From NCBI RefSeq assembly GCF_000002075.1, contig NW_004798385.1:71624-135623 (forward strand): a DNA stretch of 64,000 bases, given 5' to 3'. Below, in pieces: positions 2,037 through 63,060 of the stretch. Numbering within the stretch: the first letter of the stretch is position 1; every line of letters begins with the position of its first letter. A program made the position numbers and the translations under genes. Under the pieces are notes generated by a model. The model did not search any database. It had not been told where the DNA came from and was given only the letters and a program-made list of their open reading frames with translations. Source of the stretch: Aplysia californica. Its lineage: Eukaryota.

Positions 2037-5000
2037 GAACCGAAGCAGTGAGGTGCCACTGCCATCCTTGTTACAATTCTGACACAAATGGCACCTGTGA
2101 AACGTTGCCTGGGGGAGCTTGTTACGCTTCCAAGTCTCTGACTCCGCTGACAGACTGGGAGGATCTGGAGACCCGGACATGGGGCTGCCTGGCCCCGGAG
2201 GGAGGGACCTTACTGCAGGTGAGGAAGTGACTCTGGCCTGGCCAGATGGCAGGTGGTACACGGACGGAACAAATACTGAGTTGCAAATAACTTTTACAAG
2301 AGTTGAAAAAGTGTTATTTTTTATTGCGTACCCGCATTTAAAAAAAAAAATTGAAATTGTAAATTCTAGCCACCAGGGTGTATGCTTTGTGGCCTTCTGT
2401 AAAAGTGGTAATCTACGGCCAGCTGAAGACCTTGAGGGCTCTTACATGGATTTCACGGGATGCAACTCAGCTCTTACCCATTGGCTTCTCTTGTTTGTAC
2501 AATGATAAGAGTGGGGTTGGCCTTTTTTTTTTATATCAAATGTGTGTGTGTGGTTTTCTTGAAAGGTAACAGTCGTTTTGGGTGCAAGAGAGAACTAGAG
2601 GCTTCAAAGTGAATATTTACTATGCAACATTGTCACTTTGATTTGATAGGGAGTGGAAACAGTATATGCTGGTTTGTGTAAAGAACAAATGACCATGAAT
2701 GGCCAAACTTTTATAAGACCATTTCGTGTGTCACTGCCGTTACATAATGAAGTGTGGCCCAGCATTGTAGCTGTTATTCTTATTTGTTTTCAGAATGATG
2801 AAAATTATATCTGATTGCCTTGTGACCTGTGTGTTTTGTTTTAGTGTCAGCCATCAGCGGTGCCGCACAGAGAGGTCTCGGCCTGTTGCAAGAACGAAGA
2901 CCTGTGCAATCTGAACCTGAACTTGACTTTCTCGGAGGAAGATTTTCTCCCCGGTGTAGGTGAGTCCCACCAGATACACCATCATACACACGCCACTTTG
3001 TTGTTTCTTTCTTTTGTCCCGGTCTCCTGCTAGAATAATAACTTTTTCATAAGTTATTTTACAGAAGGAAAGGTAGTTAAAAAAGGATACATTTTCCTTG
3101 GTGCTGCATGCATCTTTTTTTTTTCTTAAGAGTGCTCTCTGTTACTGTTTATTTATCTGTGGTTTTTAATAATTTCTTTAAGTGTAAATTTCAACGATTT
3201 TTTTGTTGGGGGGGGGGGGGGGTGGAGGTATATATATATATATATATGATTTTTCAATGCTGCTTCAGTATGCATACTATACAGATAAGGATTTGAGCAC
3301 TTGAAGAATGAAATGGTCTGTGCTTTATGGGTGGTTCTGTTTTCTCCTCCTTTCTTGTCCAACTTCTATTGTCTTTATCTCTCTTCTTTCTTTTCTATGT
3401 TACTCTCTAGTGACACATCTATTTTTGGGGCACTTATTTGATGTTTGTGTTGTAATGGAGGTAAAACTCTTACTGAAGCAAAACAAAATGTTGTGTGTTT
3501 TCAGTGCACCCGTCTGACCCTGAGAAGAGAGCTGAAAACGTCACACAGATAGTTCTCCTCATCTCCGTCACGGTTTTCCTCCTCATCCTCATCGTGGCCA
3601 TCACCATTGTCTACCTCAGGTAACTGGGAGACTTCTTTATCTTTGATGTATGTGCAGACTGGTTTTTAAAAGTAGCAAAAGAGGGGAGTTGCTGCTGCCG
3701 ATGGACGGGAGACTATGCATGCACACTTACAGTCTGAGATATGACTACTCACACTCTCACTTTTACTGACACAAAAACTCTTGGGTGTGGGTGGTTGGCA
3801 GATGCTGGGGTGTGGTTTGCTCCTTCTTTCTTTTCTTATCAAATTTCCATCGTCCTTACTCTCCTCCTTCTTTTATTTACATATATTACAATGAAGTAAC
3901 ACCATGGGTGGTTGGTGGGTGCTCTGGTGTTGTCTGCTCCTTCTTTCCTACCAAACGTCTATCACCCTTATCTCTCTCTTTCATCTTTTTTGTGTTTGCT
4001 ACTCTCTTGTATCACCTCTAATCTTTGTCACTTAAATGGCCTTATTGTGTTGCAAGAGCCGTAAAACTCTTACTAAGTGAAATGAAATAGCACCTCCAAT
4101 CTTCAGCACTTAAATGACTTAATTGTCTTTCAAGTGGTGTAAAGCTCTTGCTAAATCTGAAAAAGAAACCCTCTGAGGTCATTGGGGAAGGGTTTTGTCT
4201 TCCAATAAGAACATTTCCATCTCGGTTTGATTTATTGATTTAAAACTAGTACTGGGTTAATATTGTATTCTTGTATGTGATAGATGTGATTTTCAAAGAG
4301 AAGGGGGTGGTTTGTTTTTTGCTGCTTTTTAAAACGGCAAATAGTGTGAGTCTGCAGTATTGTTGGGCATTAACCAATGAGGGACAAGAAAATTTCTCAC
4401 AGGAATAACCAAAATTTCATTTCCCCTTAATATAATAAGATCTTGCCCATCACATGGTTATTGTAAGTGTCTTATGAGCAGAAAAGACTATACTGTCGTT
4501 CGTCTCCCATCACAGGTTCAAGAGGCAAGAGTTCAGGAGGAAGCAGCTCTTGGTGGACTCTGAGCACGAGACATTTGTTCCGGTGGGTCAGACGTTGCAC
4601 AGTCTGATTGACGAGTCACAGAGCTCTGGCAGCGGCTCCGGCCTGCCTCTCATAGTAAGACAAGCTGCTGGTTTTGTTCTCTCTGTCNNNNNNNNNNNNN
4701 NNNNNNNNNNNNNNNNNNNNNNNNNNNNNNNNNNNNNNNNNNNNNNNNNNNNNNNNNNNNNNNNNNNNNNNNNNNNNNNNNNNNNNNNNNNNNNNNNNNN
4801 NNNNNNNNNNNNNNNNNNNNNNNNNNNNNNNNNNNNNNNNNNNNNNNNNNNNNNNNNNNNNNNNNNNNNNNNNNNNNNNNNNNNNNNNNNNNNNNNNNNN
4901 NNNNNNNNCTTGTCTCAATATTTTCATATTGATCATATTTTCTCCTGTTCCTCACCCCTCTTAGCTGTCTTACCTTCCCAGGACTGGAAATTTTTCCGCT

Positions 5001-8000
5001 AGCCTCACGCTTCCCTCAGTCAAGTTGTACTCAAAATAACCTAGAGGGATACTAAGATTTACAGGGAATTTAAAAGTATTTACACTTCCAGAGGAAGTTG
5101 CTCTTTGAAATATATTTACGACTTCCTTTTATCAACAATGTTCTCAGGCAAAAAAGAGGATGTTACTTCTGCATATTACCTTTTCCTAATTTGTTACAGT
5201 TTTATTTATCTCCCCGTGAAAATTCTTGTTGACTTTCGTCTGTTGTACACAATCATTTCAAACAGGGACAGTCAAAGGTGGCCACCTATTGTCAGTGAGA
5301 AAAGTCTTTGTCTTAGACAGGTGAATGTCTTGAACAGCAAATTTTTTTAATGCGGAGGGGGGGGAGGGGAGTGTATGTGAAATCATTTTAACAGGTGATT
5401 GTCTCGGACAGGTGGCCGTTAGAGCAGGTTTCATTGTATTTCCATTGTTTCCAGTGCGTCTCCGTGCCCAACTGTACTCTCTTTGTTGTCCTCAGGTTCA
5501 GAGAACAATAGCCAAGCAGATCACTCTGGTGCGAAGTATTGGCAAGGGGCGTTTCGGGGAAGTTTGGAAGGCCAAATGGCGTGGGGAGAACGTTGCCGTG
5601 AAAATTTTCTTCACCACGGAAGAACAGAGCTGGTTCAGAGAGACGGAGCTGTATCAAACTGTGCTGCTCAGACACGAGAATATCCTCGGTGAGTGCTGGT
5701 GTATAGTGGAGGGGTGGGAATTGGTAGTTGTTTCTGAGGGTATTGGTTCAAGTCTTTCTTCAGAACACTATGGTCATTTGAGAAGCAGAGGAAAAATGTA
5801 TCTGTATTTTTTTTAAATTCTGCTGGTGAATGTACAAATTTTTTTTAACGTATTTTTTAAAAACATTTTCTTCTGTCTGCCGGAAAGCTCGTTTATATAT
5901 ATGACTTGTTATTGAATGCTTTTGTCGTATCAGGTTTCATTGCGGCAGACATCAAAGGCACGGGCTCGTGGACGCAGCTCTACCTGATCACAGACTACCA
6001 TGAGAACGGTTCGCTCTACGACTACCTACGTCTGCACGCCCTTGACACCTCCGAGATGTTGTACCTGGCACACTCGGCCGCCTGTGGCATCTCACACCTA
6101 CACGTGGAGATTTTTGGCACTAGAGGTTGGTCTTTGAGAAAACGTATGAGTAGTTTTTTGGAATGTCTCTGTGTAGTATCTCTGAGAATACATGCGTGTG
6201 TCTGTGCAAGTTTTCTGAGTAAACTTCCATATGTTGTTTTTATGCGTGTATGTGTATATGTATATGTCTATGTGTAAGATCTCTTGAGAATATATGCCAC
6301 GAGAAAAAACTTGTGTCTTTTCTAGGTTATTTTTTTATATTTTGAAATTTGAATTTCAATAAATTATTTCTCGAGTACGTGCAACCGATACCACAGATTA
6401 AGAAACTGCAGTAAAAATGTTTTTTAAAACTTCTGGGCTTAGTACATCTGAACAGCTGGCAGGCATAATGTAATACGGTGCACTGTTCTTGAATAGAAAA
6501 GTAGTCTCAAAATGCCATTAGCTTTTCCTTTCCAAAGAGGTTTATTTTTTTCCTGTCATTTTGTTACTGGTTGCTTCTTTTATTTAACTCTTGGTATTTA
6601 CTTTTGAAAGTTCTTTTATTAACTTTTGAAAGAACTTTTATTTTCTTGTCGGGACATAATCAGCCATGATTCCTTTATCACGTCTCCATTGTTCTCTCGC
6701 GCAGGCAAACCCGCCATAGCCCACAGAGATGTGAAGAGCAAGAACATTTTGGTTCGGAAGAACGGCACGTGCTGCATCGCTGATCTGGGTCTGGCCGTCA
6801 AATACGTCAGGTGTGTTTGCTTAACCCTATCCCAAGCGCAATTTACTTTATTGTATCATACATAATTAATTCAGCTGAGGTAAAATTAAGTGAGAGGTGG
6901 CATTGCTCAAGTGGGAATATCAAAGAGTTCATAAAGAAAAAGTAGACCTCCTTTTTTGTGTGTGTGTTTGGTGCTCTCTTGTAGCACCTCTAATCTTTTG
7001 CTCTAATATGACCTAATTATGTGATACACCTTTTTTTGTGTGTTTGGTGCTCTCTTGTAGCACCTCTCATCTCAGGCACTTATATGACCTAATTGTGTTA
7101 TAGAGGGCAGGGTTCAAACAACCGGCCTCATAAATATAAAAAAGTGGTGATGTAGCTGTAAAACGTGCATTTGTATAACAACAACAACAACAACAGCAAT
7201 ACCACAACAACGACCACTGTGTCCTCAGTGAGAACAATGAGGTGGACCTGGCCTCCAACACCAGATGTGGGACCAAACGCTACATGGCCCCCGAGGTGCT
7301 GGAAGAGACGCTGAACAAGAACCACTTTGACTCGTACAAGCAGGCGGACATGTACGCCTTTGGCCTGGTCCTTTGGGAGATTGCCCGCCGCTGCGTCATA
7401 CGAGGTGAGATTGTGATACGGTCGTTTCACCCTTTGTGCGGGTGGGGTGAGATTGTGACACCATTGTTTCACCCTTTGTGGGGTGAGATTGTGATACTGT
7501 TGTTTCACCCTTTGTGGGGTTGAGATTGTGATACAATTGTTTCAGCCTTTGTGGGGTGAGATTGTGATACGGTTGTTTCACCCTTTGTGGGGTGGGGTGA
7601 GATTGTGATACTGTTGTTTCACCCTTTGTGGGGTGAGATTGTGATACCATTGTTTTGTCCTTTGTGGGGTGAGATTGTGACACCATTGTTTTGTCCTTTT
7701 GAGGTGAGATTGTGACACCATTGTTTTGTCCTTGTGGGGTGAGATGGTGACACCATTGTTTTGTCCTTTGTTGGTGTGAGATTGTGACACCATTGTTTCA
7801 CCCTTTGTGGGGTGAGATTGTGACACCATTGTTTCACCCTTTGTGGGGTGAGATTGTGACACCATCGTTTCACCCTTTGTGGGGTGAGATTGTGACACCA
7901 TCGTTTCACCCTTTGTGGGGTGAGATTGTGACACCATTGTTTTGTCCCTTGTGGGGTGAGATTGTGACACCATTGTTTTACCCTTTGTGGGATATTGGCG

Positions 8001-8898
8001 GGTGCTCTGGTTTGGTTTGGTTCTTCTTTCCTATCAACAAACATATATCGTCATTATATCCCTTTCTTCTTTTTTTGTGCTTGTTACTCTCTTGTAACGC
8101 CTCTAATCTTCTGGCGCGCATTTGACCTTATGCAGTTGCGAGCGCTGTAAAACCTCTACTAAAACTAAACTAAACAAATGTGCAGTGAACACAGTAATGA
8201 CCTTGTTTGTCTTATCCGCCTGCAGGGTTTGTCCAGGAGGCGGAGCTGCCGTACTATGAGTACGTGGGCCAGGACCCGGGCATCGAGGACATGAGGAAGA
8301 TCGTCAGCGTGGAGAAGTTGAGGCCAACCATCCCGGCCGTGTGGGAGGAGCAGGAGGTTTGTGCAGGACTTGCGCTTGTCTGTCTTGTGGAGAAAGCTGT
8401 TTGATATGGTGGTTGGCTGGCGGGAGCTCTGGTGTGGTCTGCTCCTTCTTTCCTATCAAACATTGATCGTCCTCATCTCTCCTCGTGGGTGGTTGACGGG
8501 TGCTCTGGTGTGGTTTGCTTCTTCTTTCCTATCAAACATCTATCGTCCTTATCTCCCCTTCTTCTTTTTTATGTTTGTTACTCTCTTGTAACACCTCTAC
8601 TGGCGCTCATATGACCTTATGCATTTGCGAGCACCGTAAAACCTCTACTAAAACAAAATGGTAATATTGGTTGGTTTGTGTATTGGTAATGTCGATAAAC
8701 AAGTAAAGTTTGGTCGATGTGTTTACTGGTAATGCTGTGGCTAAATCTGCTCTCGTCTCCTGTCCCCAGTACCTGAAGGTGATGGGCCGACTGATGTGTG
8801 AGTGCTGGCACCCGAGCCCCGCGGCCCGGCTCACCTGTCTGCGTATCAAGAAGACGCTCAGTAAGATGATCGAAACCATCGAGTCTGCACCAAAGTAA
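2037..8898 (+). CDS. BMPR1: BMP type I receptor, ALK3/ALK6 (BMPR1A/B, thickveins) class; 5'-partial
   Basis: Exons 2037-2218, 2845-2959, 3505-3619, 4516-4654, 5496-5688, 5934-6125, 6705-6810, 7229-7404, 8226-8356, 8770-8898, all AG/GT flanked with consistent phases (~491 aa in window). Ectodomain has 10 Cys ending CCKNEDLCN; TM helix [23 protein letters not shown]; GS box [20 protein letters not shown]; [30 protein letters not shown]45 loop [11 protein letters not shown] marks the ALK3/6 class. The first exon found starts in phase 1, so the start/signal-peptide exon lies upstream. Confidence 0.95.
4688..4908. other. Assembly gap
   Basis: Run of N inside a BMPR1 intron. Confidence 1.
7405..7991 (+). 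repeat. 36-bp minisatellite, ~16 copies, starting at the BMPR1 splice donor
   Basis: Unit GTGAGATTGTGACACCATTGTTTCACCCTTTGTGGG; unit starts at about 7405, 7447, 7483, 7519, 7556, 7597, 7633, 7669, 7704, 7739, 7776, 7812, 7848, 7884, 7920, 7956. Confidence 0.95.
7995..8175 (+). mobile_element. ~180-bp headless retroposon copy abutting the donor minisatellite
   Basis: Matches the family consensus. Confidence 0.85.
8487..8658 (+). mobile_element. ~180-bp headless dispersed retroposon (representative copy; >20 copies/fragments in window)
   Basis: Consensus GGGTGGTTGGCGGGTGCTCTGGTGTGGTTTGCTTCTTCTTTCCTATCAAACATCTATCGTCCTTATCTCCCC..TTACTCTCTTGTAACACCTCTAATCTTC..GGCGCTCATATGACCTTATGCAGTTGCGAGCGCCGTAAAACCTCTACTAAAAC(T)AAAA. 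+ copies near 3310, 3783, 3906, 6948, 7995, 8407, 8487, 9945, 14100, 14181, 18117, 25111, 54661, 57845; - copies near 29487, 30001, 30379, 32041, 32620, 35245, 37922, 39126, 40722, 48848, 63915. Confidence 0.9.
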
Positions 8899-8910: not shown

Positions 8911-9264
8911 AGAAGGAGGTTCAACTTTACGTCTACGAAGTTTCCTTATAACAGGAGACATAAGAGGAGGTGCAACTTTATGTCAAAGAGTTTCCTTATA
9001 ACAAGAGACATTGAAAGAGGTGCAACTTTATGTGTACGAGTTTCCTTATAACAGGAGACATTGAAGGAGATGCATCTTTATGTCCACAAGTTTCCTTATA
9101 ACAGGAGACATTGAAGGAGGTGCAACTTTACTTTGAGAAGTTCGTTACCACAGGAGACAGTAGAGGAGGTGTATCATTTCTTCTTGAAGTTTCCTCGTAG
9201 AATGAGGTACCACATTTCTTCCCAAAGTTTCCTTATAGCTGGAGACAGAAACGGAAGTGCAACT
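8911..9264 (+). repeat. 50-bp minisatellite at the start of the BMPR1 3' UTR
   Basis: TTTCCTTATA recurs at 8941, 8991, 9041, 9091; degenerate copies follow. Confidence 0.9.
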
Positions 9265-22168: not shown

Positions 22169-25100
22169 TCAGGAATTCTGACTGAGATGGTAACGTATAA
22201 GCGCGTTGCGGACCTGCTCGTACAGACAGAAGTTGAGGCCGGCGACGCTGGCAGACTTGAGGAGACTGGGGCTGAGCCCCTTGTACAGACCCCGCAGCCC
22301 TTCCTCCTTGACCACACAGACCAGACAGTTGATCATCCCGCTGTAGTGACGCACCGCACCAAACGGGCGGCGGGCTGCCTCAAAGCCCTGCACCTGCAGA
22401 CGTTTCTTGACCACGTCCAGTGGATAGACCAAAAGTTTGGAGCAAAATCCCGACCCCGTTCCGCATAGCAGACTTTCCAAGGACTCTGGGAGTGAAAAAG
22501 AAAAGGAATAAAAAATAAAAACAGCATTTAAATTTAACTAACTACAAAAAAAAGAGTTGAAAGGTCAATTTTTTACAGCAGAACATACCCCAGCACAGGG
22601 ATAACATTGAGGCACACCTGATTCAGCCTGCCTGACATAACAGTTTTCTGGGGTGTGGCCAGTGCACATAGGCCTACTCATCAAACATTTCAACTTCCAG
22701 TATATTAAGGGCCAAATACAGTGGAGTCTGCTTTAATCAAACACGGTGAATCCGGAACCAGCGATAAACCAAAAGAAGATCAAGGGGTTTTTTTCCTGTG
22801 CAGTTCGAACAATTTCTCTGAACTGAAAACATGGCTAACCCCCGAAAAAATCAAACGGTTTCACAGATTTCGTTTACGCTGACTCCACCGTAGTTTCAAC
22901 TCCAGTCTACCGTTACAGAGAACGTCCATGGATTGTCGAGTGGAAATGTCATAGAATGTTACGTAACACTATAAAAATATGGTTCACATTAACATAATTA
23001 AACACAAAATTTTTAGAAAACCTTTCTCGCTTTGAACGATAATACATGGGAAACTGATCTGCTTTATCCTGATTAATTGATTTGTAACAAGAAACTGATT
23101 AGTCTATCATGCGAATAGCAAAAACACACATAACGAACCACTCATATAGAGAACAGATTTTCAGGTCCAAAATTTTTTCCCGTAATGTGTATATTCTTTG
23201 TATATAAAAACCATGTAGATGTGTTGCAAACTTCCTCCATAACAAAAAGATTTCCGCATCCCACCGTTTCACTATGTGTGTGCTACACTAGCTTTTGCCC
23301 TTAACCCTATCCATACACCCAGGGGTCATTTTGTACCCCCGGGGTTGTATTCTTCACTTTTTCAGAATACTTCTAGTACGAAAATCTCTTTGAAATTTTC
23401 AGTATTTCTCAAAAAATCATTTTGACAGACTGCTATGCAAAGCGTACTGATTGGACTAACGAGTAAATTTCCTCTTTAGAAAGTGGTGGCACAGAGTTCC
23501 CCACGTTGTATGGATACGATATTAAAACACACCGTACGGATAAGGTTAACGTACCTGGTGGACTTCCACCCCACAGTCCCTTTGCCCTGTGCCACAGGTC
23601 GGTGAACAGCGAATACAGGCCGAACTGGAAGCCAATCTGCGGGCCGATGAGGGACATAGCCGGGACGAAGCCCCGGTAGAAACCCCGCACTCCCTCCGTC
23701 CTCACAATGACCCTAAACGCATCAGCAGCACTTTTGTACACCTAGAAGGACAGACGTTGGAAGACAACAGTTTAGTCACACAAGGCACAGAGAGAAACTA
23801 GAATGACAAAGAAGTATTCAATTCAGCATTCTTTCATCCTTTACAATAGCATAACATACAAACATAAATATACACATATATAATAATTCATCAGTGTTAC
23901 ATAACATACCCATGCCCAACTCACCTTTGGTTCTCCCTGAGCCACGAACCGGGTGCGAATCACATCCACCGGATGCACAAAGGCCATGGATAAGCATCCG
24001 CTAATGCCGCCACAGATGGTGTGGTTCACGGAGCGGTACCTCGTGCAGTACCAGGCTGGCAGGACATGCCAGCAACCTTCAGTGAGAACCTCAAAGGACG
24101 CATACTGGGGGTAAATAGTATTTTAGCCCATAAAAAAATATTTAAGAATCAGCACATGTCCAGACTCATGGTAAAAACGTTTTTCATTTTTCTTTCTTTC
24201 ACCAGTTTGCACATTTTCAAGCACCAGTACTAAATTACTGTAAAACTTGTCCATAGTGGTCACACAAGATTACAGAGAAAAGTAAGCATTATTGACAAGG
24301 TCTGAGCCATATGCATAAGTGCAAAAACAGGGTAAGTCACATTCTGAGAGATTCGCTTCTTCTTGTCGCTCTATAAAAACAAGAGCATAATTCTTCACAG
24401 TTCACACGTTGAAAATTACTTGCATGAAGACACTGGCATATGCCTTGAAGTTATTTACAACATTATCTTTATTCTTAATCATACGTCTACCACGAGACTG
24501 TCAAAGGACAAGTTCACACTCAGATCACTGCTTGCAAATCATAGAGATGAACAACGATGCTTTTTCCCCTTGACACTGTAAAGTAAAAATAGGCCCGAAA
24601 AGACAAAAAGTAAATACCTGTACTACACCATAGAGAATGGAGAGAACTTGTGCAGGGATGTGACCTTTCCACAAGGCCTTGACCCCTTCCTCCTTGACGA
24701 TACTGCTCACAGCCTGCGTGATTCCCTGGTACTTGGAACTTTGACTTTTCGTTAAAGGCTCAACCTGTAGCTGTGATTGACAAAAACGACGATCGGTTAC
24801 TTTTACGCATATATATATATAGATATGTTGTTACTTCTATTTCTACACCCATGTTGTTACTTATTAGGTTACTTTCATACCTATATGTTGTTACTTCTTA
24901 GGTTACTTTTACACAGATGTTGTTACTTATCAGATTATTTCTACACCTATGTTGTTGCTTACTTATTTCTACACTTAATAACGGAAACAAAACAAAATTT
25001 GTCTTTAAAACCTCCAGGCTGTAAAAATGAGCACATTTTGATTTTATAAATGACGCTCGTAGGCTGACTTGTTGACCAGGATCACAGATTAATCTCTGCG

Positions 25101-35541: not shown

Positions 35542-38500
35542 TCACAAAATTTCTTTCGGGACCGTTCCCGGTGGCAGGTTGCTTATGTCCAGGTCATCGA
35601 AGTACTTGTGCTTCAGAATTTTCTTGGCTGATATTCTCACAGCAGGATCATAGATCAGCATTTCCTGGGGAAATAAAAAAAAAAAAGTTTGATTAATTCA
35701 CCCGCATGTAAAATTATACAAAACTCAATCCTGGCATATATACAATGGCACATGCCCCACTGCTCATTTAGCTCAGTAATAGCTTTGCAACTTAAGTGTC
35801 CCAGTGTTATATAAGAAATGGGAAAAAGTTATATAGATCTCATTATTAAGCGCAGCCTTTTACATTTACAAGATGACGGTGCTCCATGCATATTACTTTC
35901 CTTCATCCCCACCCGGCGACATAGATACATGTCAAAATCATACCTGCCAACATTGCCTGGGCCAAAATCTGTAGTTGGACGCAAATTTTTGTCCAAAAAT
36001 CTGTAGATGACCTAAAAAATCTGTAGTAGGCTATATTACCTCTTGTCGCATACTTAATTTGGGACCCTTATTCATATTTTATTTTGACCCACATCAAATA
36101 TGCATGATTGTGTTTGCGACTTCAAACAAATGTAGAAAATGACAAAGAAAAAAAAAAGACAAAGATGAAAACTACCAGAGGCATTTACCCTATTAGTAGT
36201 TGGTGCAGTTCCTGTCCTATTCATACCTGCACGAACACACACACAAATGAAACCAAAAAACCACAACCCCCCCCCAAAAAAAACCACACAAAAAACAACA
36301 ACAACAAAAAACCAGAAGCAAAGAAGCAAAGATGAAGAAAAGGTGGGCCTTGGATGACTTAGGACTAGCCTTGGCCTTTTGTCTTTGCAGAGTTTACAAG
36401 GAAAGAGTATGACGGATCCCGAGTCCACACAAGGCCTGCACCAACACGCGTTTTGCAGAGAGTTTTCTAGATCTATAGGTTATCAAAAATTTAGAATACT
36501 AAAATTTGCTTCCAAGTTCAGTTTTTGTCCCCTGGCCTGGTGTTGCCTTCAACCCCCCCCTCCCCCGAGCGTATCTTTAAAAAAACAAACAATCCTCCCC
36601 CCATTCCAGAGTCCTATACTATGCAGCGGTCAGACTTTGAATGAACTTTGATGACCCCTACAAGTGCTGGTGCTCACAATGTGATGGAACGCGCAAGTTC
36701 ATTGACCGGTCACAATGGCGAACCCGACAAGACGCTTGTATAACTATAACTTTCTTTTTTCTTTTTTTTTTTTCCACAAGTGACAGCACAGGACAAATAT
36801 TGATTTATCTTCAAGGCGACACAGCGTTTGCCATGCACAGCCTGCATGTTGTTACAATTAATGTTGCGTTATCAAACTACTATCAGCAAATTTCTGGGTG
36901 GTAACGAAAGTGAAAGTATATGTCTTGATTATCCCGATCAAACGTCGGTATCACATCCGCTTGCCACCATAGCCGCCTGTCTGCATGAAGAAACATACTC
37001 TCGAGGGAGCCGAATGAATCACAATCGCGACCGGCAAAAATGAACTTTCGGGCGTTATCGGATTTGGTTTTCAAATATTTGATAACTTTCTCAAATTCCC
37101 GGGGCCTGGCAGTCACCCTGCTGAATCCCGAAGTCGGTGGCTTCATCTCAAAATCGGTGGATCGGTAGTTTGACCCAAAAGTTGGTGATCTACCGATTTT
37201 TTCTGTAGGGTTGGCAGGTATGCAAAATAACTTCCCACTCAACATAGATACATGTCAAAATAACCCTCCACAAGATACACGATAAAATAACTTCCAACTC
37301 AATATAGATACATGACCAAATAACTTCCAACTCAACATAGATACACGAGAAAATTACTTTCCACTCACCAACATAAATACATAATAAAATAACTTCGCCT
37401 TGTTGACCACCTACAGATACATGATAAAAAGAAATCTACCCACAAGGAAATTAAACTCACATCTTCTGAATGCTTCAGCCTACAGCCTTACCATTACATC
37501 ATAGACTCCACCAATCACTTCTAAAGAACTGTTGCAATAGAACTAAGAGCATTCCGACTCATCAGTAATTTTTTTTTTTACAAAGAAAAACAAGCAAAAA
37601 AACCTGGGAATTTGTTTTGTTTCAGATTATCGCTACGTACAGTATTTTCAAATTAACTAACGGAGTTCAGTCTCAGCAATCTCCACTGCATAAGACCACA
37701 GTCATCCAACCGTTTCACAGTGAGGATAAACTCACCTTAAGCAGTTCAAGACCGTCCTCATCCAACTGTTTGACACTGTTGGCAAGCTGGTTGGGATCTG
37801 TCCACTTGGGGAAGGTGTTCTTGTAGTCCTGTAGCTGAGTCACGCCCTTCCACGTCTCCTCAGTCGGGGTCTGCAGGGTTCTGGAAAGGACATACCAACC
37901 GGGAATTTATAGTCAAATTCGTTTAGTTTCAGCAGGTGTTTTATCGCACTTGCAACACAGTAGGTCACATAAATGCAGAAGATTAGAGGTGTTACAAGAG
38001 AGTAACAAACACAAACAACAAGGAGGAGAGGTAAGGACGATAGATATTTGATAGAAAAGAAGAAGCAAACCCCACTAGAGCACCCAACATCCTTCCACTA
38101 ACAGAATTCTCAACAAAAAACAACAAACCCACAGTAAATCATCATATAATGAAATGCACAGAAAGCATATTAACTGGAGCCAAAATCTCACAGATGATCA
38201 ATTAATTTATTAATACAGTAGGGCCTAGCTTTAAGAGGATCACTGTAATATTCCTGTTATAACAGAATCGATAAAAGAATGAAATCATCACATTACATAG
38301 ATTACCCACTGCAAATACCAATTAATGCTCCTTTCTTTTCTAACAATATCCCCCCCCCCCCCAATCTCTATCTCAGGGATGCCACTCAACTTTGTTTTAA
38401 ATAGCTGAAAATCCAAGCGCCACAGTCTCGCTAACATATCAACATATCAATTTGAAACCCAAAGGGAGTACATAGAGAGAAATGACAAACAAACATAAGC

Positions 38501-41500
38501 AATGGGTGTACATAGAGAGAAATGACAAAGTAACAAAAACAAGTTGTGCGTGGGTTGTTTTTTTTCCAACTATAGATTCTGTCTTGATCTCAATAACGGA
38601 ATAGCGGATCAGGATCAAAATACTGGGGAAAAGCGGAAAAGTGGCATCCCTGCTATCGTTCTTTTTCTTGAATTTTAGTCCCACGGAGGTTGGCGAGACA
38701 TCCATTTAGGTGCACGAGCAATAACAATAATAATTGCATACACAATGCACAACCATGCTCTACAGCACGCTCGTTTCTATGCTAGTTAACAAGCAATACT
38801 GACCTTTTTTAAAAATTTAAAACTTTAGCGTTACTTTCTTGTTACCTGAAAATGCGGAAGAGTTGATCAATTTCTGAATCCCCGTGGAAGAGAGGTCTTT
38901 TGTTGACCATTTCAGCGAAAATACACCCGATGCTCCAGATGTCGGTGGCGATGGAGTACCGTTGTGAGCCCAGCAAGATCTCTGGTGCCCTGTACCACAG
39001 AGTCACAACCTGAGGCACAGACATTCATATAATTTGTTATCAACCACGAGGCGTCAGTTTTGAATCAAACAGAAGCGAATCAACACAATTTAAACAGCCA
39101 TTTAGAACAGGGAAAAGTAGTCTTTCTAGTAGAGGTTTTACGGCGCTCGCAACTGCATAAGGTCATATGAGTGCCAGAAGATTAGAGGTGTTTCAAGAGA
39201 GTAATAAACATAAAAAAGAAGAAGGGGGAGATAAAGACGATAGATGTTTGATGGGAAAGAAGAAGCAAACCACACCAGAGCATCCGCCAACCACCCACTG
39301 AAAAGTAGTCTAATGACAGAAACAAAAGAAATAGTAAAGAAGTAGGGCTTTCAAGTGTTACGCTCCAACCACTCACCCTGAGATGGGATATATACAGACA
39401 ACATACAACACATCAAATTTCCTTCACATACATGTATGAAACAGGAAGACAAAAGATCAAATGGGAAGCTCAAACGATTTTGAACGGTTTACTATTATCA
39501 AACACCCCCACCCAACAAAAACAACACCAAGCCCCAATCAATTTCAAAACCAACCCAATATTCTACATTTCAAATTTCTAGTCCCATCAATTTACTTTTT
39601 TTTAAAAGCCAAATTATTAAGATGAGAACGTATGTATGCCCGACTTGAGTCCTAAGAAGTGATATGCTACATGTTAAAGAAAAGCATCAAATAGAAAGCC
39701 AAAGTACCCTAATCAGAGCTACTTTCTTTTTACTCAAAATGTATGCTGTATCTTTCAAACCTCGTGTGTGTAAACTCTGACAGGGACCCCAAAGGCTCTG
39801 GCCAGTCCAAAGTCTGCCAGTTTGATCACTCCTTTGTCGTCGATGAGCAAGTTCTGTGGCTTCAAGTCGCGGTGAAGGACACGCCTCATGTGGCAAAACA
39901 AAATGCCCGCTGTGATCTGATAAAGGTAGCTCTGCAACAAAAGTGTTTATTTTTATAAAGACTTAGAAGAAAACACACGATGATGCACAAACATGGTAAG
40001 TGAACAATTTTTTAAAAATTGCAAACATATTTTGAACAAACAACGCCGCTAGACAAGATAACAGAATTAACGCTGCTCACTTTCCCCACAATTTTTAGCC
40101 TTGCACTTAGTGCGACTCATCAGCCCTAGGCAGCTTTACAGCTCCTGGTCAAATAATGTAACTTCATGCTAATTTTACATGCCAAACCACTAACCATTCA
40201 GACTGAAAGCTCATTGTTTTTTAAGGTTTATTTAATTCGCGTGGTGGGTGCCCAGTCTAATGTATTTTTAATTCTATGCATTTTAATTTTTCTTTAAATA
40301 CCCCCCCCCCCCCGATCTTTTCAAAGCCTGCATCAAACTGACGATCAATCAATGTTTGTGTCTTTTCATGTATGACACATCTGAGTTCTGTAAGATTTAA
40401 GATGTCTAGCAATAGAGCCAATAAAACATGAAGGGAATTAGGTTGATATGGGGGGGGGTTGGTGAGTGTGTGTGTGTACTTCATTAGGTTATGAAATATA
40501 TGTCAAGTCTATCATCCATGCACTGAAGAATGATATGAACAAATATTATAAAACAAAAGTAATAAGAGGAACTAAATCGAGATACATCTCTCATTTGTTT
40601 AACAGTCACAGACATTTAAAACTGACAGCTATAATAGCTTTTAAAAAGTAATAGGCCTTTTCAAGTGGTAGGAGAACCCCCCCCCCAAAAAAAAAACCCA
40701 CAAACAATCCCAACATACCTTAGTGCCAAAGATTAGAGGTGTATTTAAGAGTAACATACAACAAGAAGATAAGGGTAACAGAAGTTTGGTACCTAAAAGA
40801 AAGAAGAAGGAAGAAGGAAACCACAACAGAGCACCTGCCGAGCACCTGCCAAGCACCCAAAAGCTACCTTCACAAGCTGTGAGTCCAAGAGTCTGTCCTT
40901 GGGCAGACTGTCCATGTATTTCTTGAGGTCCATGGAGAGAAACTCAAACACCAGGTACAGCTTACCCTCCTGCATCAACACATCCTCCAGCCTAAGCACA
41001 AGAAAAAACAAACCCTTGAGATCATAAGTAAGGCAATTGTATTGTTAACATTTGAAATTCAAAAATTGCAAAAATTTACATACAAACAGGTAGGCTACTC
41101 AATTTGATTATGCGTAAATTTTTCGGCAAATCTATCTCTTATTTTTATCCATATTTCTGTATTCAAGATACAATTGTAAAATTGTCACATAAGCCATAAA
41201 AAATCATTTCAACTTCAGTCAGGAATAAATTGTTTCCTTGATTTGCCCTTTCCCCCCCGATTATGTTGGAAGTAAAATCAAGGAAATAAAAATAAAAGCA
41301 TTTCTAACTTTAAAGAAAACAAATGAGCAGTGTAAGTTTTTTAAATAAAAAACCATTCAATGTCCCCATCTTAAAAAAAAAATGATATTAAAAAAAATAT
41401 TCTTTTTTGTTACTCACAACGTGACAACTGATTTGATTTAATTTTTTTTGCATGGTATTGTATACTTATCGGTTTCATGAAAATATTAAGAATCGTTTTA

Positions 41501-46539: not shown

Positions 46540-49500
46540 TATATCTCTTGACGATTTCATAAAGACTAAAAATGTGAAAGTGCGATTAAAGTAAGTTGTC
46601 AATTTGATTTCCTCCCCCCAGTGAACACATGCTGAGTTATTTAGATGTTATTATTACAAGTTGATTTCAATTGACTTGTCATAGAATCTGGACTTTTATT
46701 GTTTTCTTTGTCACTGCGTCGCGTCTTTCCATTTCAGCGAAGTTTCGGTTTCTCCCTTACAGTACAGTCAGTGCCTTACTGAAGTGACAAAAAGAATTAT
46801 TTCTCTAATTGCATTGACAGACTAGGACCGCTGTTCATTCAGTACTGCAATATAATAGCAAGTTTGGTAAATTTTTACTTTCGCTTCCGCACACAGATGC
46901 ACTGCTTCAGGGTCAAAAACTGCAGTACTGTTTGCTGCAGATCACAAATAAAGTATTATAAAGTTATAAAGCCACTAAAACTGTCGCAAATCAATTATTT
47001 TCAAGAAAATTTCAAATCTAACGGTAACATATCCCAATATGGGTTAAAACAGGGGGGCAAACTGGTACATTTTTACTTTCACTCCCGCCCACAGAGATGC
47101 ACTGCCTTGCTTGGGGTTGGGGATCCAACTGATCACTGTCACTGTGCTGAGCTGAACCACTAAAACATGAGCCGCGACAAGTGACGAGCAGATAGCTAGA
47201 GCCATTGGCCTATATTGTTTGATGTCATTGAGGGATTCCCACTTTGTCAGTCATGTCATGGTGGCAACACGACCGCACGATGGCAGTCTGCCGACTCGGA
47301 TTATTTTCAATTTTCTTCGAAGTGGCTAGCTGTACTTACCTAGGTTTGGCCCTATCGACTCAAACCTGTTAAGTACACAGGTCTCATTAGATCTAGATCT
47401 AGTAATTATTCAGGTTCAAATACATGCAAGTCAGTAAGGCACCTTTTGGTTTTGTCTGAAATACATTACAAATACTTACTTTAGGCATTGCAAACTAAAA
47501 ATTTCATCTACAATTCAGCCGTCAATATTAAGTACGGCTAGCCTAACAGTCTAGCCGTCCTTAAGTACGGCTAGCCTGGCTGCTACCCGTATTTAAGTGC
47601 GGCTAGACTGACAGTCTAGCGGTACTTAATCTTAGGCCCTATTAACATTAGAAAACAGGAGGTTTAAAATACATGCACTAGGGCACCTGGTTTTGTCTCA
47701 AATACAAATACTTTAGAGGTACTGCAAACTAAAATTTTATATATTTACAATTCAGTAGGCCTATTTTCTTTTTATTGTCAGTCTAGCCGTCATCTAGAAT
47801 AAGTACGGCTAGCCAAGCTGTCTAGCCGTACTTAAGTACGGCTAGACTGCCAGTCTAGCCGTCATTAAGTACGGCTTGCCTCTTCCATTTGCTTTGCTTT
47901 GCAACTTGCAGAACTGTTTGATTCGGTTGTCTGTGATTGTGCAGCGGCCTTCTTCCCGCCCAGATTGATTCTGATGCTGTACACTACATAAACTGAGAAG
48001 AAGAAGACTAAAAGTAGGCCTACGTACGAAAGCAAGTTACAGTTTAAACAAAGTTCAACGATGCAGTGTAAATGATCGGCCATTTTGATCCGGATCGTTT
48101 CTTTTTTAAGGGAAACTGCCAGTGCAAGCCGCACGCTACGCAAAATCATCACGATCAGATGACGCAACGGGCATCCCCCTTGTGAGGTGAAACAAGACGG
48201 CTGTAGTGTTACTATAGGTCTAGATATATCGGCCAATAGCGTTTAGTTGTCGTTTTCTAGCTGTCCGCTCGTCACTAAAACTTTTAAACTGTCACAAATT
48301 AAATTTTTTTGAAGAAAATTTCAAACCTGACTGCAAAACATCAAATTAGGGTCAAAATAGTAATAGGGGGGAATGTTCCCCCCTGCAAACCCCCCCCCCC
48401 CTTCATTGTGCTTTGGACTTGCCTGTACACCAGTATCAACGGGATACATGTTCGGGCTTTTTTTTCTGTCCATCATTCCTCGGGGGGTTTTACTCACATT
48501 TTTACAGCGGAAAATTAAAAACAAATAAAAGATTGATTGTAGATGTAGTCAAGGGATATCTTTGGTGTAGTTTAGGGGGCCGAGTGATCCCAGCGTTGAC
48601 CACTAACTCTAGGGAAAGACATGGAAGATAAAGCTCAGTCGGAAGTGACGTCATGCTGGACTCGATTCAGAGTCTGAATATAGATAATTTTTGTTTTTAA
48701 TCAAACTTAAGTCTGCATAGTCACTTCAACTCTGCTTATTGCATATAAATTAGCCTAATCACACTGTGTGTAATTTGTAATTAAATAAGTCTGTTATAGT
48801 CATAGATTACACTAACTTCACTACTACTACAATACTAAACTACACTTTTAGTTTTAGTAGAGGTTTTACAGGGCTCGCAACTGTATATATGAGCAAAAAA
48901 CTTGACTTCACTGCACTCACTATACACAGTCCACAGATATATATTGGAAGGTAATTGTTGATGTTGGGAATTGGGGCCGTTGTGACTCATCTTGGTTTTT
49001 GGCCTTTTTAAATGTCAGTGAATTGTTTTAGCCTCATTGGTTGAAATTGAGCTTGATTGAAACGTAATACAGTCTAATGTTGTCTGCTCTAACAGCACCT
49101 GTACAAGACAACTACCTGTACTAATGATCATTTGTTATTTCCCCCTTTTGGTTTTTAGAAAAAAGTATAAAGACACTAAGATGTCCACTTGTTTAAGACA
49201 GCTACTTTTCTTTTTGACAATGGATGGCTGTCTTTAGACAATTTCGGAATTTCAACTGTATTTGTCCACTTTGGTTTTGACTGTCCCTCCTTGTTTTCTC
49301 CCAGTAATCCTCAAGCTGGACAGAGACGGAAACCCCAACAGAGAACCAGTGCTGGCGTCGGCCAGAATGTTCCTCCTCAGAAACTACAAATAAGGAAGAC
49401 ATTTGATGCGAGGTCAAAGTTGGGCCCGAAGGCCGTGGTTGATGCCAGAGACAAAATAGTTGTCATAAAGAAAGGTGGTGGTGGAGATGCACGGAACAAA

Positions 49501-52500
49501 ATTGTCCAGAAACAAGTTCAGAAGGGCACGTTTGACGCTCGGTCCTTGCTGCAGAGACAGGCTCAGAAGGCAGTGCGGAAGAAGGGGCCGGGCGGCCCGG
49601 GCAGTGGTCCTCCTCCCCCTGCCTTTGTGAGTGTTACTTTTATACTTCTTTCTGTGTGTGTATGTGAGGGAATATTCTCAAAGGCTTCTGATTGTTTGCA
49701 TGAGATGATTGAGTGTCTCAGAAAAGTCCAGTCATAAAGTACACTATATGACACAATAAAAGCTATATATATATATGTATAATGATCCACAATACAGAGT
49801 GATCAACAATCCTGTTCAGTAGAGTAGACAAAAAGTTTGATGCAGGAGAACAATTCAGTGGGGGTTGTTTGCTTTGCAAGCAATGTTAGTGGGTTTGTTT
49901 GTTTTGGTGTTTGGTGAATACATGGAATTTTAATAATTTAAGTGAGCGAAAAAGAAACAGAGGCTTCTTCTTTTAATGAGTCAGAGTGTTTTTTGAGTCC
50001 GAAATCAGTGACTTAGTTTCATTGTAAGTGTGTATGCACTCCCATAGGTGTGTCCCATTTAGATTATATTTTAATGTGCAAAAGACACTGATTTAAAAAA
50101 TAAATCGGAGAAAAAATGAACACTGCCATGAATATTTTCAGTCCAGTCATGTAATAGATTGGAATGGTCTTGGATGATGTTATATGAAAACCAAATTGTA
50201 TTGTGGTTTGACTTGTTCATCTGAGTGTATGCTCTGTTCATCTTTCAGAAACCCACCCCCGTGACAGCCCCAGGACCACTCACAAGGACGGTAAGATATC
50301 TCAGCAATCTTTTGGAATTTGACATGCAGTTGCTGTTGTTGTTTTAGCCGAAAAGAATTTTGTGTCTTTTGAGAGCATGATTAAAATACTATATAACAAA
50401 GTAATCTGGAAGCGACGTTGGTGAATATTGTGTAATTCTAAGCCCTGGCAAGTCCGGAATCTCAATGGTCTCCCAGTACTAGTCATTTTCACGCATTTAA
50501 AAAAAATTCTCAGGAATGTAAAAATTGAAATACCGGCTTTTTTTTGGCTTATGTAATGATACATTTCTCCCTCATTATAATATTTGACACTTTACAACAT
50601 TAAAATCTGTTTTAAAAAATTTTACCCAAATTTTCTAATGTCCCATTATTTTCAATTCTGGAAAATTTATCTCCTCACTGAATGTAACAGAAAGTAACAG
50701 AAAAATAAATTATTGTAACCAAAAATATAAGGACTAGTTTTAGATATATATCTATATTTTTCCTAATTATTCTAATACTGCTTTGCTATGTCCTCAAACG
50801 TTCCTCGATCTGGTATTTTTTTATGATAGAGAAGTTAAAAGATAAAATCAGGTGTTTAGGCCTCTACAGTGTCACCAATGTGAAAGGTGTTTTTTTATCT
50901 AAACTACTCCCGTATTTGAGAAATCTTCATTTCTGGTTAGGAAAATGATTAAACTTAAGTTTGGTACAAGAACTATATTATATTGCATTATCAGATGGCC
51001 TTCTTGGAAAAAATGTGAAAATCTGATCCTGTCTGTGTTTGGGGATCAGAGGTTAGTGAGTTAAATAAAGTCAGAAGAGTATGGAAAATGATAGCTATAT
51101 AATCAAATTAGATTAGTGTGGATGAGAAGCAATGACTGATCTTTATGCTTATTGTTGCTGTACTTTCATATTGTTATAGTATCAATAGTAATCCTTTTAT
51201 GTGATAAAGATATGTTGAATGGATGTGTAATAAAGTGTTTTGTATCAATTTAATCAAAGCGCTGTGGTGTGTGTCGAAGCGTTGGTTGATAAAATGCTGT
51301 ATTTGTATCCCGTACATTGCCCAGTTGTCCAACCCAAATGCCAAGAGCCGTGGCCAGGTACGAGCGACCCCCGGGGGTCTACAGGTGACCCGGCCCGTCC
51401 CCAGCACAGAAGTCTCCTTCACTGGCTCGTCCCTGCAGGTCACAAAACGTAACAAGGTGCGGGACTAGTGCAGTTGTTACTTAAGAGACAGGATTTTGGT
51501 TGTTTGATTTGTTGTTGTTGTCTTTTGTCTTTGACTCTTTTTCCTGTCTTTGCCCTTTGCCCTCTGACATGGTTTCCAAGTGAAAGGAGCATTTTCCAGA
51601 GGTTTGCTGCAGACTCATTAGTTAAATATATTGCTGTGAAATATAAAAAAATTTTGAACCCAAAAAATACTGTAGATGTGGTTTCACATATGCGCAACTT
51701 TCTTGTAGCTGTAGAAAACACTGTCATTTACTTAGGTATACATCTCTGTGTTGCTTAGCTTTTTCCTTTCTTGACAACTCTTTTTCAGGAAAGATTTGTT
51801 TTTCGTACTTACGTTTTGTATTATATTTGTTCGCTTCCCCTATGTGACTCTTACACTATAACTGTATGCAGTATTGAAAAAGGCTTAACTTGTTTTTTCC
51901 AGATAGGCTATTGTTGTTGTTTTGAGACTTTATTGTCCCACATCAATCTTTTGCACAAGGGTCATAAGGGAAAAATTAAATGGTTTTACAATTTTTAAAC
52001 GTGTTTGTAGTGATGTGTACAAATTCACTCTCACTGCTGTAAGAAATTTGTATGAAAGCCGACTTCAATATTTGAGTGTGTCAAGTTTGTTTGGTAATAA
52101 GTTGGAAAGTCTTGGTACTTTGCAAGTTTTCTGAATTTTGAAACTGGAAGAATGATGGAAATGTTTATCCCTTGTTGTGTCATTTTGTCGACAGCCTGTT
52201 CCAGGCATGACGCCACAAATAGCCGATGCTGTCCCCATCATCCAAATCCGCAACGACCGCTACAGGAACCCGGCCGCCCCTCCCCAGCCCACGCTTTCCC
52301 GCGGTGGTCACCCGCACCCTCCAGCCCCCCAGTACCCACAGCCCACGGCGTACCGGGAGCCCGGCTACGGGGAGTACCAAGAGGAAGCGGCGTACTTTGA
52401 GCCTCCGCCCTTCCCCCAATCGCGCGGCTACAAAGACTGGGATAACCCGCAGTACAATCCTTCCTCCATCTCTGTCCCCGAGATCCCCAAGGTGCACATG

Positions 52501-55500
52501 TCCAGTTTGAAGACGGTGGAGGCGGCAGGCATGCGGCCGGTGTCCTACTCGGGAGGTTTCTCCCAACACCCCCCGCGTGCGCCCCCTGGTGCTGCCTCCG
52601 TCTCTCAGCCCAGCAGACAACTCGCCACAAAAACTGTGACCCCGTCGATCAAGATCTCCCCCGCTGGCCTCAAGAGGAAGCCGGTGGCAGCTCCCGATGT
52701 GTCGGGGCCGCTGAGGTTAGGCCGAGGTGGTGGGCCAGGTATCGACCTTGACCCCTCCCCAAACAAGAAGTCAAAGGCGGCTGTTGCGGAGGACTTGGAG
52801 ATTATTGACTTGGTAAGACGTTGGAAATCTTTGGTGAAAAAACATTAACAATCAGCAATACGGTATAGAATTTCTGCTTTGTTTTTTCCCTTTTTATTAC
52901 TCTCTTTGTATGCTTACTGTTTTGTTAACATTTCTATGTCCAGGTCCCATATTTTAAAGTTTTTTTTGTATCGTTTCAGTTGTGCATGGATATTTCAGAA
53001 ATCATGACAGACATGTGTAATACATTGGTTGTAAAATGCGCCTGCAACGAGTTATTACCAACGATTTTTTATGATGTCACAGAGCACCTAGGGTTGGTTG
53101 CTTGCATTTTGATATGTGCAGACTGAGGCCTGTGAAAATATGAAACGTGTGTAATGTCATGTTGTGTCAAGTAGCATCGTTTGTAGATGAGTGATTATTG
53201 TGGTGTATCCTTGAAACAGTTCTCATTTTCTTATTCCCCACTCTATACAATTTTCTTCCTGTAATAGTATGGTGCTTTATGACGAAATGTTACATGTACT
53301 CTTTTTTTGGTCCTCAGTCTTTGTGAAAGTCTGAACTTTTTACAACAAAATATCCTTTATTCTTTCCTCATGCTGATGCTATGTATAATAATTATAATAC
53401 CTGTATGACCAAGTGTTGGTTTTTTAAAAATTCTTGGTCTTTGTAATGGTCTAGTATATTACCAGTAAAAACACTACAGCAAATTGTGTTTGTTTTCCCA
53501 GGAGAGTGACGGCGCGGTGATCAGCCCCCTACAGGGTTACCGTGTGATGGTGACAAACTTGTTCAATGGAGTCACACAAGACGACATCATTGTGAGTTCT
53601 GTGATTTAAGAAAAACTTAGTGGGAGTCAGTGCATTGAGAGAAGTTTGGATAACCTTCCTGGTCTAAGATGGGCATAGATGGCCCTTTGTGCATTTGGTT
53701 GTACCTGTGCGTTGTTTATTTGGTTGGTTGTATGTCAGTTTTATTTGTTAAGTACTGTGTGTAATGGAAAGTTACGCTGACCTGGTTGTGCAGAGATACG
53801 GCCAATGGTTTATGAACAAAATTCTCTTGCAGCTACTGGGTACCTGGTTTCTGCAGATATTTTATAAAGCAGCAGTTCTTCATATAAGAGAAAGAGACTT
53901 AACCCTATCCATACGCCCTGGGGTCATTTTGTACCCCTGGTTTTATTCTTCACATTTTAAAATACTTCTAGTATGAAGATCTCTTTGACACTTTCAGTAT
54001 ATGTCATAAAATCATTTTGACAGACAGCTATGCAAAGCGTACGGATCGGATTAACGAGTAAATTTCCTCTTTGAAAGTGGTGGCACAGAATTCCCCACGT
54101 GGTATGGATACGATAGTAAAACACGACATACGGATAGGGTTAATGAAATGTTAACATAGGTTTCACCTGCCAAAATCAGAGTGGATTTCCTTTGCCTTAT
54201 GTTGCGTTATATATTGGTGCTTGTGTTGTTTGTTTCTTTAGAACCGAGACCAAAGCACATCATGAAGCCTCTATCATCTATGAACTGACTATATGCCTAT
54301 TTCTGTGAAGACAAAGAGTTGTTTATGAAAAAATATTGTTTTCTGCTTTCCATGTGGTCCTGCAGCACTTTCCGCTAAGCTAAGGCTTATTACTGGCTGA
54401 GTGAAGTGTTGTAACTATGAAAAATATAGGGATTTTGTCAGGTACACATGTATATTGTTCGTTCCGTAATTAGTTTCTGTTGTGTGGTTAATTAGTTTCT
54501 GTTGTGTGGCGAATGTTTTCAGGAACTGTTTGGTGCTGTGGGTCCCCTGAAGAAGGCCAAACTGCTCAAGCCCGGCTCAGCAGAAGTTGTGTACATCAGC
54601 AAGCCGGATGCCGTCAGTGCCGTGCAGAAGTACCACAGTCGAGAGTTGGACGGTGAGTGCGGGTGGTTGGTGGGTGCTCGGAAATGTTTTGCTCCTTCTT
54701 CTCTCCTAACAAACATCTGTCGTCCTTATCTCTCCTTCCTTTCTTTGTATGTTTCTCTCTAAAAACACTTATAATCTTCGGGACTTATATGACCTCTATT
54801 TGTGTTTTCAAGTGCCATAAAACTTTTACTAAAATTAAAACTAAGATAATGAGTGACTTAGAACATTTGTGTGTCAGTATGCTGATTTACTTTAAATATC
54901 CAGGTGATTATTTTTCATGTAAAACTGAAGACAGTGAGAGATGTCTTAGGTAGACCTGCCAAATACTCTGATAAAATATGGACCCCTCTAATTTTTTCCC
55001 CCCTAGAAGAACCCTGATAGGATATGCATAAAATCTTTTTTTTTTCTTGAATTATGTTTCCACTGGTCGAATGCAACTTTTCGTAAATGATGTGAAGATA
55101 CACAGGGGTTTTTTTTTTTGCTGTATGTACATGAGTTGTGATTTGCGTTACATTTTTATTTGGCATGATCAGTTTGTAATGTAATCTGAATATACTGGGG
55201 TTCCGGAGGCACTGATGTTTTTCCACAACTCAGATTTTTAGGAAAGGATTTGGAGCAAAACTGTTATTTTTGGTCATGGAAGATATTTCAAATATTTGAC
55301 TGTCAGTGCATGGGGAGGATTTAGATTATACATATATAGGTGGATACATTTCATGTAAAAGTTATGGCACGCAGAGACGGTGAGTGTCTTAAAACTTTGA
55401 CTTTCTTCTGTTTACTCCCAATACGTAAAAAGAGCAATAAATCTGTAACTTAAAATTATAATTCTGTGACTTGCATCTTTCTTCCAGGTCAGCCGATGTA

Positions 55501-56403: not shown

Positions 56404-56569
56404 GCTCCCCGTCATTTCCTTTTGTAAACCACCACCGGGTATCTGTTTGTTCTCAAGACACGTTTTGTTCCTAGGTCCCCTGGTGACCAGGCCCGGTCAG
56501 ACGTTTGACCACGCCCAGTGTTTTATAGCATTTAACTGACAGTTGTATAGTCTGAGATGTCAGTTCTAC

Positions 56570-62774: not shown

Positions 62775-63060
62775 ATTGTTGTTATCAGAATACTGTCAGT
62801 GTCATAATCAGAATACTGTCAGTGTCATAATCAGAATACTGTCAGTGTCATAATCAGAATACTGTCAGTGTCATTATCATAATACTGTCAGTGTCATTAT
62901 TGTCAGCGTCATTATTATCATTAGAATATTTTCATTGTCCTTATCAGAATATTGTCTGTGTCATTATCATCAGAATATTTTCATTGTCCTTATCAGAATA
63001 TTGTCTGTGTCATTATCATCAGAATATTTTCATTGTCATTATCAGAATATTGTCAGTGTC
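62775..63060. repeat. 23-bp minisatellite with derived variants
   Basis: TCAGAATACTGTCAGTGTCATAA repeats, grading into TCAGAATATTTTCATTGTCCTTA variants. Confidence 0.85.

Follow-up and report, generated by a model that had tools for sequence, protein, structure and literature searches.

Does a minisatellite that begins exactly at a 5' splice site, and repeats this site unit after unit, change the splicing of the gene in which it lies, or is it simply carried along in the intron? The question is raised by an array in a receptor gene of Aplysia californica, located in a window of 64,000 nucleotides (the whole stretch of DNA analysed here; contig NW_004798385.1, 71,624 to 135,623), from whose first nucleotide positions are counted below unless another locus is named. 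A preliminary description of the window had proposed that the reiterated donors form a copy-number-variable set of decoy U1 sites able to tune receptor isoforms or dosage through nonsense-mediated decay (NMD), the process by which transcripts carrying a premature stop codon are degraded.

Host gene and structure of the array

The host gene, a BMP type I receptor, occupies positions 2037-8898 of the forward strand. Ten coding exons in one open frame were found, encoding the ligand-binding, transmembrane, GS and kinase parts of the protein; they do not include the first coding exon. The first of the exons found contains an Activin_recp domain (E = 9.7e-5). BMPR1B was the best solved-structure match for both of the two kinase exons tested, and a receptor kinase exon matched BMPR1B with an E-value of 6.5e-26, versus 2.5e-18 for TGFBR1. 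As judged from sequence comparison, the receptor therefore belongs to the BMPR1A/B (ALK3/6) group, its kinase exons resembling BMPR1 more than other type I receptors and its ligand-binding domain being of type I.

The exon preceding the array (7229-7404, forward strand) runs from the activation segment to what we take to be kinase subdomain IX (Pfam Pkinase, E = 1.2e-7; BMPR1B, E = 2.4e-24). It is spliced at both ends in the contigs of run X8 and terminates at the true donor GAG/GTGAGA, the slash marking the exon/intron boundary. The next kinase exon (8226-8356, forward strand) has an acceptor that is joined to position 7404 in X8, with an open joined frame; the acceptor at 8226 is confirmed by spliced contigs and the end at 8356 follows from sequence and frame. 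Both exons and the 7404-8226 junction had been anticipated in the preliminary description.

The intron between them (7405-8225) starts with the minisatellite, which covers 7405-7991 on the forward strand. Cutting it at each GTGAGA yields 16 units, which range in length from 35 to 42 nt around a consensus of 36 and have a mean pairwise identity of 0.855, the first unit beginning at the true donor (7405). Tandem Repeats Finder (TRF) reported the tract 7442-7991, with a period of 36, 15.1 copies, 90% matches and a score of 778. An array of about 16 units starting exactly at the authentic donor of a BMPR1 kinase exon, as originally described, was thus recovered. The array was sized and aligned from one assembly, and the copy-number variability named in the preliminary description was an assumption.

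GTGAGA opens 15 of the 16 units, giving 14 copies downstream of the true donor, one in each of 14 of the 15 downstream units. The remaining unit, the fourth, reads GGG/GTTGAG and has an extra T near its start. Twelve of the 14 copies stand in the context GGG/, one in GAG/ (unit 9, 7704) and one in GGT/ (unit 11, 7776); 13 are thus preceded by G, and the exact nine bases of the true site occur in one copy only. The earlier statement that nearly every unit repeats G/GTGAGA holds for 13 of the 15 downstream units, but the exon bases at -3 and -2 are absent from the copies. What was copied is the intronic half of the splice site together with the G at -1, and relative to the true site 13 of the 14 donor copies have a weaker base at -2 or -1.

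A search of the 927-Mb assembly with the unit pattern gave 14 matches, all of them at the array locus, and all four matches of a DNA search fell there likewise. We had considered whether the unit could be a dispersed satellite or a repeat internal to a transposon, and rejected this since every genome match falls at one locus. The confinement of the pattern to this locus indicates that the array grew in place. Units are more alike when adjacent (identity 0.89) than when distant (0.85 at a lag of five or more) and share variants in blocks, a pattern which, at the sequence level, fits the normal turnover of an array. The arm of a predicted hairpin, described below, has been lost in five units and the donor context is altered in three.

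Reading frames opened by the donor copies

The second and third donors (both GGG/GTGAGA, forward strand) lie at 7447-7452 and 7483-7488, that is 42 and 78 nt beyond the true site. Computation of the frame bore out the proposal that both are in frame and would add 14 and 26 amino acids, respectively; after either one the frame stays open to the natural stop. The extra T of unit 4 creates an in-frame TGA at 7521-7523 (forward strand), upstream of donors 5-16, and a premature stop is predicted for all 12 donors of units 5-16, whereas units 2-4 are without such a stop. The claim that this insertion condemns every later donor is therefore correct for units 5-16; it should be added that the weak GT of unit 4 itself (7519) is in frame and would add 38 amino acids. 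The stop of unit 4 probably arose by commonplace slippage beside a run of G, in sequence that is never translated.

Splicing of the true donor

Four runs were aligned to 5480-7490. Three of them, consisting of raw reads (X21-X23), gave only 2, 4 and 6 reads. The contigs of the fourth, X8, a run tentatively labelled as RNA, skip the three GT..AG introns of this interval at a depth of 367.1, and because these introns are skipped the contigs represent spliced RNA. One X8 contig, with a depth of 290.9, passes from the exon end at 7404 directly into the exon at 8226. The true donor is thus used in RNA, and 7404-8226 is the sole junction seen, in contigs of this one run. The bin 7384-7451, which straddles the exon end and the start of the array, showed a depth of 110.3, wholly accounted for by two exon contigs (computed value, 110.31). 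No X8 contig lies on 7406-7490, and in this single run, whose contigs drop rare forms, depth is 0 over 7452-7490.

Use of any donor from 2 to 16 would leave 7406-7446 in the transcript, so that the empty interval 7406-7490 bears on all copies. It argues weakly against their use, since rare forms are dropped from contigs, some records are removed by a filter, and the sequence comes from one animal, whose array allele may differ; minor isoforms are possible.

The X8 contigs fork within the exon, at 7359-7386, with depth falling from 367 to 291, and do not show the second branch. The fork could reflect an allele, or a related receptor that shares this stretch.

Strength and predicted folding of the donors

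We used as a measure of donor strength the energy of the duplex formed with the U1 5' end encoded in this genome, a measure which overrates G-U-rich sites. The copies pair with U1 at -9.3 kcal/mol, against -9.7 kcal/mol for the true donor, and outdo by this measure five of the nine real donors of the receptor gene. As pairing is nearly equal, sequence alone does not silence the copies. Calling them decoy U1 sites is in this respect a fair description; the tuning role attached to the term is unsupported, 7404-8226 being the only junction seen.

The element GGGGTGAGAT recurs wherever two units meet, and folding predicts that it pairs with TTTCACCC further on in the same unit. Hairpin z-scores were -2.3 for units 2 and 12 and -2.6 for unit 3, compared with -0.9 for unit 1 and 0.0 for unit 8, in which the arm is lost. 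Opening the donor is predicted to require 3.5-4.3 kcal/mol for the true site, compared with 9.9-12.2 kcal/mol for copies 2 and 3; the 15 downstream sites together span 5.6-15.9 kcal/mol. Predicted net binding of U1 would accordingly be favourable at the true donor (-6.2/-5.4 kcal/mol) and unfavourable at copies 2 and 3 (+0.6 to +2.9 kcal/mol). Unit 9, which carries the exact nine bases of the true site, is predicted to be less buried (5.6-7.4 kcal/mol). Most copies have G at -2, and the folding model predicts that they are buried in a hairpin. A search of Rfam over 7200-8700 returned four miRNA-like matches far below the cut-offs, which we took as chance hairpin matches.

We propose several reasons for which the copies would be silent. 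The true donor comes first and may be set by exon definition, as in the human F7 gene discussed below; in addition, the G that replaces A at -2 in most copies and the GGGGTGAGAT/TTTCACCC hairpin may hinder recognition of the downstream sites. By analogy with F7, position probably matters as much as the hairpin, an inference that carries a result obtained in mammalian cells over to the receptor of Aplysia californica.

Origin of the unit

The array ends at a copy of a high-copy interspersed repeat of about 175 bp (7987-8170, forward strand), which has 28 matches in the window and whose first 24 bases have 11,612 exact matches in the genome. Mapping of 152 copies showed that the repeat has a sharp start, GTGGGTGG, 8 nt ahead of its core, which places the start of the present copy at 7987. 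Its first five bases, GTGGG, are also the last five of unit 16. Each unit accordingly closes with the opening five bases of the repeat, and in units 1 and 5 the piece of the repeat start is longer. The sharp 5' end and the short, repeated A-rich tail are SINE-like, a class assignment deduced from sequence features.

These observations suggest how the unit may have formed. The repeat would initially have lain about 31 nt inside the intron, so that GGTG was common to the exon/intron junction (GAG/GTG) and to the repeat start (GTGG/GTG). Slippage or unequal exchange at these two short matches could then have duplicated the intervening 36 nt, and later turnover would have enlarged the array. On this model, the copies have G at -2 because this base derives from the repeat and not from the exon.

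We also asked whether the repeat has a general tendency to produce such structures. Targeting of the repeat to donors was rejected, as GTRAG occurs 5-35 nt upstream of 514 of the 11,612 exact matches to the repeat start, compared with 535 for the control GARTG. Among 30 GTRAG-flanked repeat loci checked, in most of which the GTRAG is probably not a real donor, none had an array running from donor to repeat. A general role of the repeat in producing arrays at its flanks was likewise rejected: of 68 arrays, 4 lay within 30 nt of a copy, versus 3.25 after shuffling (p = 0.41), and in a preset test on fresh regions 1 of 45 arrays lay within 10 nt, versus 0.95 (p = 0.63).

Samples of the genome contained about 360 pieces of the repeat per Mb, with a (CTAAA)-like tail. 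All 12 of its matches within three gene spans of the window (2037-8898, forward; 37718-41044, reverse; 49180-56500, forward) are in the sense orientation relative to the gene. This set includes local duplicates, and the copy beside another array, L101, is antisense.

Similar arrays in the same genome

To place the receptor array among the minisatellites of the genome, 1.36 Mb of unmasked sequence were sampled, consisting of the window and 160 stretches of 10 kb, a non-random set in which several stretches come from contigs with repeat matches. This sample contained 113 minisatellites of at least three units, 112 besides the receptor array. A kinase-family search meant to supply sets of exons yielded mainly long single-exon matches and was set aside. 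Eight other arrays were flagged by a screen that required an open, GC3-rich frame to end at a repeated donor. Pfam was searched with six of these (all except L121 and L146): L101 gave a match below the cut-off, one match was attributed to chance and four gave none. We retained one supported boundary array among the 112 (L101) and two probable ones (L217 and L198).

L101 (41 bp x 7; L101:3678-3970, G000:C1115:33678-33970), on the same contig as the receptor array, is at the end of an exon for a fibrinogen domain, the Pfam match of which (E = 4e-4) is below the curated cut-off. Each of its units comprises 24 exon bases and CAG/GTACGC. The array stops 5 nt short of a reversed copy of the 175-bp repeat. 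L217 (41 bp x 6; L217:1857-2099, reverse strand) repeats CAG/GTGGGT behind a GC3-rich frame, and L198 (63 bp x 4; L198:4339-4575) repeats GTG/GTGAGT; both are at probable exon ends, judged by eye, and the Pfam search gave no match for either exon. The frequency of boundary arrays thus appears to be some 1-2 per Mb, as a rough figure, and their recurrence at unrelated exons means that no story specific to the receptor gene is needed.

We looked for a sign of selection in the distribution of variants along the unit. Of the 18 variant letters, 2 fall in the first 12 positions (p = 0.03); manual merging of linked changes makes this 3 of 15 (p = 0.21). This low variation at the donor end is not enough to claim, from the alignment of units, that the donors are being kept.

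Comparison with known boundary minisatellites

The receptor array is made of head-to-tail units within the 10-100 bp range, starts at a used splice boundary and repeats the donor, the most upstream donor being the main one used in the X8 contigs. It joins a kind of minisatellite of which human and lancelet genes have already provided examples (F7, CBS, 6-16, ABCA7 and the amphioxus mirages).

The closest parallel is intron 7 of F7 (Borensztajn et al. 2006, PMC1557585), in which a 37-bp VNTR of nearly equal unit length also starts at the boundary and repeats the donor, the most upstream one being used. In minigenes, identical or even stronger downstream donors of F7 were reported to be uncompetitive unless they were of perfect consensus, and the authors found no structure to account for their silence (PMC1557585). 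The F7 copies contain four exon bases, are identical to the true site, number 5-9 units and vary in length, as has been proven (PMC1557585). In contrast, the receptor array has 16 units, retains only the -1 G from the exon, mostly has a different base at -2 and is predicted to be masked by hairpins.

Like the receptor array, intron 2 of 6-16, intron 13 of CBS, LMNB2 and PDGF have reiterated donors behind the true one, 10-25 in number as reported. Among the five human genes listed in that report, the true donor alone is used in three (F7, LMNB2 and PDGF), while two further donors are also used in the other two, 6-16 and CBS (PMC1557585). The 25-bp VNTR in intron 18 of ABCA7 likewise begins with the GT of a donor, and there retention of one unit is reported to lead to a premature stop, cryptic donor use and an effect of array length having been measured (De Roeck et al. 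2018, PMC5954066). The ABCA7 mechanism is the one put forward in the preliminary description. Donors 5-16 of the receptor array would similarly give a premature stop; in the X8 contigs, unlike in ABCA7, no later donor is seen in use, and the first two copies of the receptor array keep the frame.

Among invertebrates, the amphioxus mirages are also tandem duplications of exon/intron boundaries, with several per genome (PMC3087553). Those of Adh3 and of the globins BflGb6 and BflGb9 apparently leave splicing undisturbed; they contain exon sequence and vary between haplotypes (Ebner et al. 2010, PMC3087553). The receptor unit, unlike these, consists nearly entirely of intron and closes with the opening bases of an interspersed repeat. 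In humans, splicing-linked repeats are described as common (PMC10078293); judging by titles and the openings of abstracts, none of the papers retrieved on minisatellites and splicing in BMPR1 introns concerns such an array.

Passenger array or splicing dial

Taken together, these results make it probable that the array is a single-locus intronic minisatellite whose host RNA uses the true donor, and whose further copies are probably neutral passengers, silent or almost so. A leaky version of the same situation, without selection, is unlikely but keeps some weight: donors 2 and 3 would be used at a low level, inserting 14 or 26 residues after subdomain IX, and the later donors would produce a trickle of NMD substrates, all of it tolerated noise. 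The open frame behind donors 2 and 3 and their U1 pairing of -9.3 kcal/mol would permit such leakage, for which 6-16 and CBS, with two further donors in use (PMC1557585), and ABCA7, which keeps one unit (PMC5954066), are reported precedents. Against it, X8 contigs are absent from 7406-7490 at a gene depth of about 300, a weak objection as contigs drop rare forms, and the folding prediction places copies 2 and 3 inside hairpins. It is also conceivable that the assembly is at fault and that the true number of units is much smaller. Tandem arrays are indeed frequently mis-sized, but the differences between units are ordered (0.89 for neighbours versus 0.85 at a lag of five or more, with blocks of shared variants), unlike the product of collapse or stutter, and we hold this explanation to be barely credible.

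The proposal that a length-variable array is kept by selection as a dial of receptor isoforms or dose acting through NMD appears very improbable to us. The layout permits it, with two in-frame donors followed by a stop ahead of 12 more; length-linked splicing at a VNTR starting with a donor has been reported for ABCA7 (PMC5954066), and the unit varies slightly less at its donor end than elsewhere (p from 0.03 to 0.21). However, no additional isoform was seen in the X8 contigs, 13 of the 14 copies have a base at -2 or -1 that makes them weaker than the true donor, and chance microhomology with a repeat present in over 11,000 copies accounts for the unit. Arrays of like build lie at unrelated exons of the same genome, and the five units without a hairpin arm and three with altered donor contexts are as expected under drift. 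We give equally little credence to a dial gated by structure, in which the opening of hairpin-locked donors would yield receptors with 14 or 26 more residues, or a drain through NMD, in proportion to array length.

On the passenger interpretation the receptor array matters little as it stands, being a further natural case of repeated donors of which the first is used. The origin of its unit is nevertheless legible in the sequence, which leads from the donor by way of the GGTG match to the point where an interspersed repeat begins. The predicted self-masking of its donors by hairpins, unlike the situation in F7, makes it suitable for an invertebrate test of position versus structure in the silencing of donors. 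Should use of the copies prove to be linked to array length, the locus would represent a splicing variant of the ABCA7 type in a receptor central to development.

Other features of the window

Two other minisatellites of the window, at 56595-57324 (units of 49/39 bp) and 62784-63061 (units of 23 bp), are without a donor at their start. A third, of five 50-bp units (8912-9171), begins 14 nt past the receptor stop codon and is likely in the 3' untranslated region. The neighbouring genes encode a mitochondrial carrier (22172-24122, reverse strand), a protein kinase, presumably CDK1-like (37718-41044, reverse strand), and an RRM protein (49180-56500, forward strand).
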